Shown here one piece after another: positions 38,358 to 40,862 of a stretch of 64,000 nt of DNA. The stretch is from positions 19,548 to 83,547 of the forward strand of contig CANRWA010000011.1 in the NCBI GenBank assembly GCA_947643415.1. Reading direction: 5' to 3'. The notes below the pieces were generated by a model, which ran no database searches, was not told the DNA's origin, and saw only the letters and a list, made by a program, of their open reading frames with translations. Both the position numbers and the translations under genes were made by a program. Source of the DNA: an uncultured Clostridia bacterium. Lineage in GTDB: Bacteria; Bacillota; Clostridia; Lachnospirales; Lachnospiraceae. Each line of letters begins with the position of its first letter. The stretch's first letter is position 1.

Positions 38358-38423
38358 AGGGTCGTTTCACGCCCAAATAAGCGTGAAACGACCCTTGATT
38401 TATCACAGGACAGAGCGTATAAT
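38358..38423 (+). promoter_or_regulatory. 15-bp perfect inverted repeat abutting the Rpn promoter
   Basis: AGGGTCGTTTCACGC-N8-GCGTGAAACGACCCT, then TTGATT-N17-TATAAT (38395-38423). Confidence 0.6.
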
Positions 38424-38489: not shown

Positions 38490-39377
38490 GTGGCAGAGAA
38501 AGATATTACAGAGAAGGTGCTGGAGTCATACAATGATGTATTTTCTGATATAGTAAATGTCCTTCTTTTTGAAGGAAAGGAAGTACTGGAACCGGATGGA
38601 CTGGAAGAGCAGGCACCACGTTCGTATTATAAGGCAGATGGCAGGGTGCATGAGATGGAGCGGGATGTGGTCAAGTGTTGGAGGTTGGGAAATATCCGGA
38701 TTGCATGTGTTGGAATAGAAAACCAGACCGGGGCTGACTTGGACATGACACTTCGTGTGATTGGTTATGACGGGGCAGAGTACAGAGCGCAGCTTTTGCC
38801 TGACAGCACAGCTAAGGCAAGATATCCTGTGATAACACTTGTTCTGTATTTTGGCTATGAACAGCACTGGAACAGACCAGTCCGGCTGCTGGAACGGCTG
38901 GAAGTACCAGAGATACTTATGCCATTTGTGAGTGATTACAGGATAAACCTCTTTGAGATTGCATATATGAGGGAAGAACAGGTGGAATTGTTTAAAAGTG
39001 ATTTTAGGATCGTTGCAGATTATTTTGTGCAGAAACGTAACTATGGAGATTATGATCCAGAACCGATGGAATTTACACATGTACAGGAGACGCTGCAGCT
39101 GCTCAGTGTAATGACTGGTGACCATAGATTTGAAGAGGCCTGTAATGATAACAGGGAAGGAGGTCCGCATAATATGTGTGAAGTATTGGACAGAATTGAG
39201 AATAGGGGAATTCAGCAGGGGATTGAACAAGGGATCCAGCAGGGAGAAAATGATTTTGCAGAACTGATGAGCAGCTTGTTTGCCCAGGGGAGGATTGAAG
39301 ACGCAAAGCGTGCCGCAGAAGACCGGGAATATCGGCATATACTTGCTGAGCAACTGTTTCAGACAAGGAAGATGTGA
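38490..39377 (+). CDS. Rpn family (recombination-promoting nuclease / putative transposase) PD-(D/E)XK protein
   Basis: D...VLES..DVFSDIVN start, ERDV...GIENQ catalytic pattern, RVIGYDGAEY, PVITLVLYFG, C-terminal QQGIEQGIQQG repeats. Confidence 0.88.
   Translation: MAEKDITEKVLESYNDVFSDIVNVLLFEGKEVLEPDGLEEQAPRSYYKADGRVHEMERDVVKCWRLGNIRIACVGIENQTGADLDMTLRVIGYDGAEYRAQLLPDSTAKARYPVITLVLYFGYEQHWNRPVRLLERLEVPEILMPFVSDYRINLFEIAYMREEQVELFKSDFRIVADYFVQKRNYGDYDPEPMEFTHVQETLQLLSVMTGDHRFEEACNDNREGGPHNMCEVLDRIENRGIQQGIEQGIQQGENDFAELMSSLFAQGRIEDAKRAAEDREYRHILAEQLFQTRKM
39174..39377 (+). CDS. Putative internally initiated small Rpn C-terminal protein (67 aa, RpnS-like)
   Basis: AAGGAGGT at 39157-39164 lies 9 nt before the in-frame ATG 39174 (MCEVLDRIENRGIQQG...). 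Confidence 0.55.
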   Translation: MCEVLDRIENRGIQQGIEQGIQQGENDFAELMSSLFAQGRIEDAKRAAEDREYRHILAEQLFQTRKM

Positions 39378-39387
39378 AGAACAAGTT

Positions 39388-39575
39388 AAACACCCCACAG
39401 CAAGCTGACGGGGCGTGAAGTTTGTCTTTCGCAGCAGAGCTGCGGGGTATTCGGTCTGTGCTCCGTTTCGGTCGTTGCTAAACAAACATCCGCTGGATGT
39501 TCAGCAACCCTTGCGGGCACGCTCGGATGGCGCAAGCAGGCTTGCCCATCCTCACTTTACCTACGCACAAATAAA
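39388..39575 (-). repeat. Structured non-coding element, copy A (125-bp core at 39442-39566, preceded by GC-rich hairpins)
   Basis: Core aligns without gaps to 53346-53470 (110/125). Multiple hairpins with compensatory changes. Lies between convergent genes. Confidence 0.85.
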
Positions 39576-39610
39576 TATGAAATTAATAAGACTGCAAAGG
39601 TGTCGAAAAA

Positions 39611-39720
39611 AGGGCTGCGGTTCTCAGCCAGCCCTTATTCTCTTATAGGAAAGTTCAGCATATGCGGAGCAAGAACGGCCAAAGGCCGTTCTTGGAGGGC
39701 TGCGGTTCTCAGCCAGCCCT
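39611..39720 (+). repeat. Modular intergenic repeat (family 2), 1.5 units
   Basis: AGGGCTGCGGTTCTCAGCCAGCCCT at 39611-39635 and 39696-39720; shared blocks are identical to 12790-12884. Confidence 0.82.
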
Positions 39721-40595
39721 TATTTCCAAGTCACGCTTTTCAGTAATGCTTCATACTCAGGAGACTCATATTGTCCAAAACCAAACTTAGACTGCCACTG
39801 GATAAAGTATGCTGTTTTCTTATATGTAATTATTGTTATCATGTTTTCAGATAGTTTTGAGTCTGATGTATATGAAAATTTCCATTGTTTTGCCTCTTTT
39901 CCTCCCACTTTAAGAGAGGACTGCATCTGGAGTTTGTAATCATCAAATAATTTGGAATAGATACTCCAGAGAAAATCCGTGGATTCATTTTGAATTTTTT
40001 GTGTATAGACAGAGATGGAATACAAGCTTTTCTTGTCATGGAAAATGCAAGGGATATTTTTTGTTTTACCATGTGTCCAGTCAGATGAAAATTGAAATTT
40101 CATCTTTTTCACCTGATAAGAATCTTTGGAATGTATCTTATGCTTTAGTTTGTCTGTGTTATAATCATACAGATCTATGCTTGATTCGAGCTCATCTGGA
40201 ACATAGTAGGGGATTTTTTTCTTATAATCATTTATGAGATAGACATCCCATTTCTGATTATCTGTATCATATTTTGCTGATATGTTAAGGAGCTTTCCGT
40301 CATTCATTTTTGTTCTGATTTCAATGTAAGTGCCATCCGATTCCTGCTTCATATTTTCATAGGTTGAGGATGCTATGGAACTGTTTGTCAGATCAGCAAG
40401 AGCATCTGTATAACATTGGATCAATTGTGGCTCGTTTGGAATGCTGCCAGTATGGACAGCATCAGGGGATGTAGTAATAATAGGATATGAGACAGGGGCG
40501 AAGGCAGGATCTGATTTGACATATTTTAGAATAAAGACTGCTGTGATGATACCTACTAGGACAGAAATTAAATCTATTTTCTTGCGAAAGTCCAT
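39720..40595 (-). CDS. Hypothetical membrane-anchored protein with a PsbP/DcrB-like C-terminal domain
   Basis: N-terminal TM helix. C-terminal LKVGGKEAKQWKFSY...AYFIQW...YEALLKSVTWK pattern. Visibly AT-rich; AGGAG RBS. Confidence 0.55.
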   Translation of the reverse strand: MDFRKKIDLISVLVGIITAVFILKYVKSDPAFAPVSYPIITTSPDAVHTGSIPNEPQLIQCYTDALADLTNSSIASSTYENMKQESDGTYIEIRTKMNDGKLLNISAKYDTDNQKWDVYLINDYKKKIPYYVPDELESSIDLYDYNTDKLKHKIHSKDSYQVKKMKFQFSSDWTHGKTKNIPCIFHDKKSLYSISVYTQKIQNESTDFLWSIYSKLFDDYKLQMQSSLKVGGKEAKQWKFSYTSDSKLSENMITIITYKKTAYFIQWQSKFGFGQYESPEYEALLKSVTWK

Positions 40596-40688
40596 AAAAA
40601 CTCCTTTCTAAAACAAAGCAGCGTTAAATTATCTGCTTGTTGTGGATACTTGCCTATAGTATAGACCATATACAAATAAATGTCAAAA

Positions 40689-40706
40689 AATGGCGCCGTT
40701 GGGCTA
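40689..40706 (+). repeat. Partial REP/MITE-end-like unit upstream of aroA
   Basis: AATGGCGCCGTTGGGCTA, 16/18 to ATTGGCGCCGTTGAGCTA. Confidence 0.5.
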
Positions 40707-40862
40707 TGAGAGCAACAGTACCTTGGGAATGTACGAAATAGTGTTATATCTGTCTGAGATGTCTGCTTGATAAAAGCAATTTCCTGTGATAAGATGAAAA
40801 TACAGTTTTTAAGCTTGATGGCGGGATTAAGTTGTCGCCGTCGGACTGGAAAGAGGTGAACT

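Follow-up and report, generated by a model that had tools for sequence, protein, structure and literature searches.

A 295-aa ORF in a 64,000-nucleotide stretch of DNA from an uncultured Lachnospiraceae bacterium (the whole stretch is called the window here) resembles the genes of Rpn nucleases and carries a second translation start within its coding sequence. Does this one gene encode both a nuclease and the small protein that neutralizes it? Such a design was described by Zhong et al. 2023 in PNAS, where the short protein RpnS was reported to keep RpnL from inhibiting growth, inducing SOS and cleaving DNA (PMC10400941). RpnS is a three-helix bundle that forms a dimer through its long first helix, and its 4-aa repeats start 8-20 residues past the initiating Met; the number of these repeats varies among strains, and inhibition is lost when the two forms are mismatched by a single repeat (PMC10400941). 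The small gene may also exist separately, and a C. difficile rpn gene yields RpnS in E. coli in a manner that depends on the predicted RBS and iTIS; the authors state that co-expression is broadly conserved (PMC10400941).

An earlier note on this DNA, made from the letters alone, proposed that the same architecture operates in this Lachnospiraceae family. It overrated the novelty of the case, since both the C. difficile RpnS and the conservation of co-expression had already been reported (PMC10400941); because the principle was published in 2023 with a Clostridia example, a specialist would not be surprised. As judged by comparison of homologous sequences, the evidence supports the ORF as a new and divergent member of the RpnL/RpnS gene-within-a-gene kind, and the interpretation is upheld for its architecture.

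An internal Shine-Dalgarno site and start codon

The earlier note had placed AAGGAGGT 9 nt before an in-frame ATG that opens a 67-aa ORF, and direct reading of the sequence confirmed this (Table 1). The spacer between the two elements reads TCCGCATAA T. Because (39174-38490)/3 = 228, the ATG at 39174 is in frame with the GTG start and corresponds to M229 of the full-length protein, and the predicted 67-aa product begins MCEVLDRIENRGIQQGIEQGIQQGEND. Both products end at the stop codon at 39375-39377. As had been claimed, the internal Shine-Dalgarno (SD) site is predicted to be stronger than that of the gene itself: the calculated pairing with the 3' tail of 16S rRNA is -13.5 kcal/mol at the internal site, as compared to -8.4 kcal/mol ahead of the GTG start. 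By the same predicted pairing it is the strongest site among all start codons of the ORF, and a value of -13.5 kcal/mol is reached by just 0.1% of sampled window positions.

Table 1. Features of the rpn-like locus, in window coordinates.
Feature	Position	Strand	Details
14-bp inverted repeat, GGGTCGTTTCACGC / GCGTGAAACGACCC	38359..38394	+	Directly upstream of the promoter
Sigma-70-like promoter of the full-length gene: TTGATT, 17 nt, TATAAT	38395..38423	+	Promoter scan, 10/12 matches
Full-length Rpn-like ORF (RpnL candidate)	38490..39377	+	295 aa; GTG start; weak SD GGGGGAA
PD-(D/E)XK core motif, D59 ... E77-N-Q79 ... R89	38664..38756	+	Conserved in 35 relatives; RpnA-like spacing
Interdomain linker, residues 219-228	39144..39173	+	Predicted coil (AlphaFold2); hosts the internal RBS
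Internal Shine-Dalgarno, AAGGAGGT	39157..39164	+	Read directly; nucleotide-level conservation in homologs
Internal in-frame ORF (RpnS candidate)	39174..39377	+	67 aa; ATG 39174-39176 to stop
Three 12-nt (4-aa) repeats, GIQQ GIEQ GIQQ	39207..39242	+	Begin at residue 12 of the short protein (11 past Met)

We compared this site with all occurrences of AGGAGG-N5-10-ATG in the window, of which there are 12, as against 5.9 expected from shuffles. Only the site at 39174 lies deep inside a long ORF, with 235 open codons upstream; 7 of the 11 others start long ORFs themselves and have just 4-60 open codons upstream. A single occurrence of AAGGAGGT and an ATG is, on its own, not beyond chance, and it is conservation that decides. 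Glu-Gly-Gly or Lys-Gly-Gly codons in a linker might simply spell an SD ahead of an ordinary internal Met: about 6 AGGAGG-N5-10-ATG sites are expected in the window in any case, and the EGG tripeptide yields GGAGG fairly often, with a null mean of -10.9 kcal/mol for the sequence of this ORF. This explanation is taken up with the homologs below.

A promoter scan near 39174 found no convincing internal promoter in a usable position. One promoter-like match, at 39145-39173, was rejected as an internal promoter, as transcription from it would begin past the ATG. The synonymous entropy profile of 105 ORFs exhibited no constraint upstream of the internal SD. Because no internal promoter was found, the short form may come from the full-length mRNA, or else from a promoter that is not conserved. 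The rpn genes of E. coli differ in this respect, having an internal promoter with a short transcript.

The internal start is conserved at the nucleotide level

The earlier note had asked for GGAGG-N-ATG ahead of the MCE motif in homologs, and here the answer was strongly positive, with the signs of selection at the level of nucleotides. The homologous ORFs compared number more than 100 and come from Lachnospiraceae, Oscillospiraceae and their relatives; essentially all of them encode the internal Met by ATG, and one has GTG. Within the same-family set of 34 homologous ORFs, which includes paralogs from the same genome, an ATG is found at the aligned column or at most 2 residues from it in 34/34, most have a GGAGG-type site 7-10 nt before it, and this site is the strongest SD-like site of the ORF in 19. 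A second set comprised 71 loci from other genomes that were located by motif pattern in a species-level genome collection. These have ATG in 71/71 and GGAGG in 46/71, and the internal site is the strongest of the ORF in 45 and among the top 5% in 62. The C-terminal part could be read in five of nine loci that fall outside the motif pattern: four (L109, L114, L116 and L123) retain the Met and an SD-like site, and the fifth (L120) has GTG in place of ATG, preceded by AAGGAGGTG, with no other Val codon used. Spacing from GGAGG to ATG is mostly 8-10 nt among homologs, which is within the optimum for initiation.

Several observations separate selection on the nucleotides from selection on the peptide. 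In the 34 same-family ORFs the GGAGG falls in three codon phases (11, 6 and 2 cases), and the peptides encoded at the site differ (EGG, KGG, ERR, EKE, EEV and GRK). When the seven codons that precede the Met were replaced by synonymous ones drawn from the genes' own codon usage, the observed pairing was stronger than the null at p<0.05 in 13/34, with means of -11.2 kcal/mol observed and -8.1 kcal/mol under the null; because homologs share phylogeny, these p-values overstate independence. The two Gly codons of x-G-G-x-x-x-M provide an internal control for shared ancestry, as the second one varies freely. Of 37 non-redundant sequences, 34 use GGA for the first Gly, against a GGA background of 28%, whereas the second Gly codon, which contributes no third base to GGAGG, is GGT in 13, GGC in 10, GGG in 9 and GGA in 5 of the same 37. 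Across 105 non-identical ORFs the relative synonymous entropy has a gene mean of 0.91, and its sole deep dip covers codons 221-229 and falls on the SD and on the codon that precedes the ATG, with values of 0.33 at E223, 0.37 at G224, 1.01 at G225 and 0.39 at N228. We conclude that, by these comparative measures, the SD and ATG are under purifying selection as nucleotides. Codon usage of Glu-Gly-Gly without conservation is excluded by the phase, resampling, Gly-codon and entropy tests, and a chance origin of the site, given GGA in 34/37 against 28%, the three codon phases and the unique synonymous dip, is refuted for practical purposes.

The internal start also compares well with the main start. 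In the 87 ORFs in which both could be placed, the internal start is ATG in 87/87, while 45 ORFs have ATG, 26 GTG and 16 TTG as their main start, and in 57 the internal SD beats that of the best main-start candidate. This comparison suggests that the short form is built to be initiated no less well than the long form, a balance that would be as expected for an antitoxin made in excess.

Could the SD-like sequence be kept for a reason other than initiation? It might pause ribosomes at a domain boundary and so help folding, or it might be the slowly decaying relic of an ancient fusion between a nuclease gene and a downstream small gene, with the Met serving as a structural residue that caps the MCEVLD helix. 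Ribosome pausing at internal SD-like sequences has been proposed in the literature, and the claim is disputed. The SD does lie within the predicted interdomain linker, and the residues M229, C230 and L233 do not vary among 35 relatives, so that constraint on the Met as a residue and as a start codon are inseparable. Against such explanations stand a GGAGG-ATG spacing that stays in the initiation optimum, synonymous constraint on the codon directly before the ATG, the use of the start codon GTG and no other Val codon in the sole non-ATG homolog, and the same SD and ATG driving stand-alone genes (see below); a relic would not persist across lineages in which synonymous sites are otherwise saturated. 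We regard an explanation of this kind as very improbable, and take the site to be, in all likelihood, a selected internal start.

The pattern is in effect the signature of a hidden internal start: a dip in synonymous variability, an SD that is kept whichever codon phase it falls in, and a free codon beside a constrained one. Searches for further genes within genes could make use of it.

A divergent Rpn nuclease with a putatively intact catalytic centre

Membership in an Rpn-like family, as the earlier note had it, held up in the profile search. Pfam Transposase_31 (PF04754, YhgA-like) matches residues 76-166 of the 295-aa protein with 23.6 bits (cut-off 21) and also matches 29 of 35 close relatives. 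Because the match is weak, we place the protein in a divergent Rpn subfamily. In an alignment of the 35 relatives (60-85% identity), D59, E77 and R89 are invariant and Q79 is almost so. The E-x-Q-x9-R spacing is the same as that of E82, Q84 and R94 in RpnA, and the distance from D to E is 18 residues as compared to 19 in RpnA; this equivalence of catalytic residues is drawn from motif and spacing rather than from a direct alignment with RpnA. In RpnA, D63, E82 and Q84 are required and R94 also matters, as mutants lose or change their in vivo phenotypes (PMC5350276). Because the E-x-Q-x9-R spacing matches RpnA, the nuclease centre looks intact. Profile and motif together identify the 295-aa product as a divergent Rpn of the YhgA-like (Transposase_31) type that has the D...E-x-Q...R catalytic pattern.

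A relative encoded on a Selenomonas plasmid (28% identity) carries the annotation 'Rpn family recombination-promoting nuclease/putative transposase', in further support of the family assignment. No NCBIfam family was matched at E<=1, including the models of the Rpn / TIGR01784-type putative transposases, and a sequence search of the PDB with the full protein gave no match. Foldseek with the full model against the PDB returned XisH, restriction enzymes and Shedu, which are of the PD-(D/E)XK type, all of them non-significant (E>0.1).

At E<=1e-10 the subfamily comprises 5,716 clustered proteins, a large number, and its range includes Lachnospiraceae, Oscillospiraceae/Faecalibacterium, Oribacterium and others. 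Its distribution is patchy and multi-copy: of 301 genomes from the taxonomic family, 35 carry it, some in as many as 7 copies, and it was not found in the one genome of the same genus that was searched. Searches of phage and plasmid collections found almost no members. No close plasmid copies were seen, and the phage match was one unannotated faecal 'Bacteriophage sp.' contig with 64% identity. In the genome studied here, the profile search found at least four Transposase_31 genes above the cut-off. The paralog on contig C1 has 87% protein identity to the 295-aa ORF. The GTG start at 38490 becomes ATG in the paralog, at an unchanged position. The ORF is flanked by transketolase (tkt) and aroA, with no recognizable defence island around it.

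Repeats and predicted structure of the C-terminal domain

The predicted short protein contains 4-aa repeats whose number is highly variable (Table 1). The C1 paralog has exactly one additional 12-nt unit (4 versus 3) with the stretch from SD to ATG unchanged, and 2, 3 and 7 units are found inside the 90%-identity cluster of the 295-aa protein. Relatives with at least 57% identity have 1-8 units, which yields a length series with four-residue steps. In five other multi-copy genomes the repeat number also differs among close paralogs, and one tandem pair of paralogs elsewhere has 2 and 5 GIEK units.

AlphaFold2 models of moderate confidence (pLDDT 74-77) suggest that the internal start coincides with a domain boundary. 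The full model (pLDDT 74) has a coil at 219-228 between a helix at 213-218 and a helix at 229-265, such that the long helix begins exactly at M229; it is followed by short helices at 269-277 and 279-294. The short form modelled alone has helices at 3-37, 41-49 and 51-66. A PDB search with the tail profile gave noise (E>0.5), and Foldseek with the tail model against the PDB returned UvrB helices at E>4 without a significant match to the RpnA-S crystal structure. DUF4351 (PF14261) did not match the 67-aa part at E<=1, and a genome-wide search with PF14261 misses the ORF. Because solved structures and DUF4351 gave no match, the predicted structural equivalence to RpnS is a qualitative one. The 67-aa tail does match the PADLOC model PDLC01084, 'C3a178 putative invertase', with E 3.5e-5.

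Stand-alone and duplicated small genes

We searched for small proteins related to the 67-aa part that begin with the same initial Met (MCEVLD). One candidate (P0007) is a 62-aa stand-alone gene that lies behind an unrelated gene for a Wzy_C membrane protein in at least 24 contigs. It retains ATGGAAAGGAGG...ATG, and its own SD is AAAGGAGG. In 3 of the 4 contigs displayed it adjoins an IS21-like element. At a second locus (L044), another copy of the small gene begins 16 nt past the complete 3' end of an rpn gene; two small proteins (P0007 and P0012) were upheld. The downstream copy at L044 has 8 repeats versus 5 in the rpn gene, and the arrangement is as described for E. coli rpnC-Ss and rpnE-Ss/ypaA. 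Three further candidates (P0001, P0009 and P0137) were rejected as stand-alone genes, being artefacts of contigs that break off inside a multi-copy gene.

A proposed toxin-antitoxin unit and its relation to known systems

The proposal of an RpnL/RpnS-type architecture in this Lachnospiraceae family is supported by the conserved internal start, the repeats, the predicted long helix and the stand-alone copies. We propose that the ORF at 38490-39377 is an rpn gene-within-a-gene toxin-antitoxin unit, and put the probability of this reading at roughly 0.72. Initiation at the GTG, with its weak SD, would give a 295-aa RpnL composed of a YhgA-like PD-(D/E)XK DNA endonuclease, a linker and a helical C-terminal domain. 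[quoted passage not shown] The long first helix of RpnS, with the 4-aa repeats, would pair with the same helix of RpnL and leave the nuclease inactive. Repeat number would decide the fit between RpnS and RpnL, such that the paralogs of one genome would not cross-inhibit. Release of RpnL, for example upon phage infection, would damage DNA or lead to abortive infection. That the long form is toxic, that the short form is translated and binds and inhibits it, and that the pair serves in defence are inferred from the systems of Zhong et al. 2023.

The 67-aa protein might instead be made internally as a partner that the long form needs, either a stoichiometric subunit or a factor for specificity or oligomerization, as is Cas11d. 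The sequence evidence points to a selected internal start and does not indicate the role of the product; a structural subunit needed in excess would suit the better predicted initiation of the short form, and the precedent of Cas10d/Cas11d is cited in PMC10400941. In the type I-D Cascade of Synechocystis, as here, an in-frame internal start yields a separate C-terminal part that binds the complex of the long form, but the short form there is a required subunit rather than an inhibitor, the proteins are unrelated, and hypervariable repeats are absent. The short forms of E. coli RpnA, B, C and P2, on the other hand, block toxicity, SOS induction and DNA cleavage. Orphan small genes without an adjacent nuclease partner suit an inhibitor better, and the differences in repeat number among paralogs suit a lock-and-key inhibitor better than an obligatory subunit. 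A needed partner is thus an unlikely role for the 67-aa protein, and we favor the toxin-antitoxin unit.

The unit proposed here shares a number of features with RpnA-E and RpnP2 of E. coli. Both have an N-terminal YhgA-like PD-(D/E)XK domain with the D...E-x-Q...R pattern, an in-frame internal RBS and ATG before a small helical C-terminal domain, and 4-aa repeats, each made up of a single hydrophobic residue and otherwise of polar residues or Gly, that begin 8-20 residues past the Met. In both, repeat number varies between close relatives and between paralogs, additional stand-alone small genes occur, and the distribution is patchy and multi-copy. They differ in that similarity is very low, with no match to NCBIfam, DUF4351 or PDB by sequence or fold; in addition, the short protein of the subfamily described here has a strictly conserved MC(E/D)VLD start, and the gene occupies a chromosomal site between housekeeping genes. 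The Rpn of Clostridioides difficile is alike in its Gram-positive Clostridia host, its architecture and the variation of 4-aa repeats between strains; this likeness is one of described architecture, and for C. difficile it is expression of the short form that was tested, in a heterologous host.

The comparative evidence extends the RpnL/RpnS design to a large subfamily that is common in Lachnospiraceae, Oscillospiraceae and Faecalibacterium of the human and animal gut, the tail of which is overlooked by the DUF4351 and NCBIfam models. Genes of this subfamily should be annotated with two CDS features.

The promoter and a shared cassette

The promoter of the full-length gene is nearly identical at three rpn paralogs of the same genome and upstream of two other genes. 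The 14-bp inverted repeat is conserved at the C1 paralog, and its right arm alone is kept at the C16 paralog; this arm is part of a promoter cassette common to the rpn paralogs. The cassette, which is 43 nt long, was not found in the homolog loci examined from other genomes, and it could be either an operator that these genes share or a promoter of a portable kind.

Beyond plain membership in the RpnL/RpnS kind, one could imagine that orphan RpnS-type genes are kept as neutralizers of RpnL in trans, acting as immunity or anti-defence decoys, and that the rpn paralogs are co-regulated. We hold this extension to be doubtful. An example of such an orphan would be the 62-aa stand-alone gene, which is left with an SD and a small ORF only, and co-regulation, if true, would point to an operator shared among defence-type genes.

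The promoter region at 38359-38423 belongs to the near-identical 43-nt cassette, of which there are five copies in the genome. Three of them are upstream of rpn paralogs, one of these paralogs being just 34% identical in protein. One is upstream of a Schlafen/AlbA_2-HATPase_c_4-wHTH gene, and one is upstream of an SF1 UvrD-like helicase of defence-associated type that matches a PADLOC helicase model with E 8e-31.

Constraint at the internal start of rpn

The candidate short protein begins with MC(E/D)VLD, which is nearly invariant across the window gene (39174-39191) and all homologs, and in 35 relatives the Cys that immediately follows the internal Met is invariant. Removal of this Met would give the short form an N-terminal Cys, which the long form would lack. 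The only homolog without an ATG at the internal start, in an Oscillospiraceae MAG from sheep rumen (L120), has a GTG there with AAGGAGGTG upstream at the usual distance. Immediately 5' of the internal ATG, the N228 codon (window 39171-39173) exhibits a strong bias to AAT, with a relative synonymous entropy of 0.39. It is a second constrained synonymous site, in addition to the SD.

Small genes and repeat number

A stand-alone 62-aa RpnS-like gene that retains its own SD AAAGGAGG and ATG (L039 2980-3189; also contigs L036, L037, and L038) was found in at least 24 metagenome contigs. It directly follows a gene for a Wzy_C membrane protein that is unrelated to it; the stop codon of that gene is positioned between the SD and the ATG, and an IS21-like element occurs downstream in 3 of the 4 contigs shown. 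In contig L044 (3-735), a duplicated small gene starts at the same MCEVLD Met 16 nt past the rpn stop and encodes eight four-residue repeats, as compared to five in the preceding rpn gene; this layout is identical to that of E. coli rpnE-ypaA. Repeat number also differs between two rpn paralogs arranged in tandem in genome G120 (C6:91579-93810; L142 and L144). Their tails are almost identical, the sole difference being 2 versus 5 GIEK units, which fits a duplication followed by a change of repeats.

Public protein collections also contain "small proteins" that begin with MCEVLD (P0001, P0009, and P0137; loci L040-L043 and L130-L134). We rejected these as artefacts located at contig edges: assemblies break within this multi-copy gene, and gene callers then choose the strong internal SD and ATG at the contig edge.

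Promoter cassette and genomic context

A near-identical 43-nt promoter cassette, composed of GCGTGAAACGACCC and TTGATT-17-TATAAT, occurs five times in the genome that carries the window. Three of the five copies precede rpn paralogs, one of which is just 34% identical in protein. Another precedes a Schlafen/AlbA_2+HATPase_c_4+wHTH gene, and the remaining copy precedes an SF1 UvrD-like helicase gene whose product matches PADLOC "Helicase" (E 8e-31). At the examined loci of rpn homologs outside this genome, the cassette was not found. Its role may be that of a shared operator or of a portable promoter.

Positions of the promoter cassette copies in the genome of the window (G000)
Copy	Coordinates	Position relative to gene
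1	window 38359-38423	upstream of window rpn
2	C1:124334-124376	
3	C16:26643-26685	
4	C3:85014-85056	
5	C30:35067-35109	

Downstream of rpn, the window (39378-40862) contains a repeat-rich spacer and a minus-strand gene (39720-40595), both absent from close relatives (L131-L134), in which ~200 nt separate the rpn stop from the EPSP-synthase gene (aroA). What lies between rpn and aroA therefore varies.
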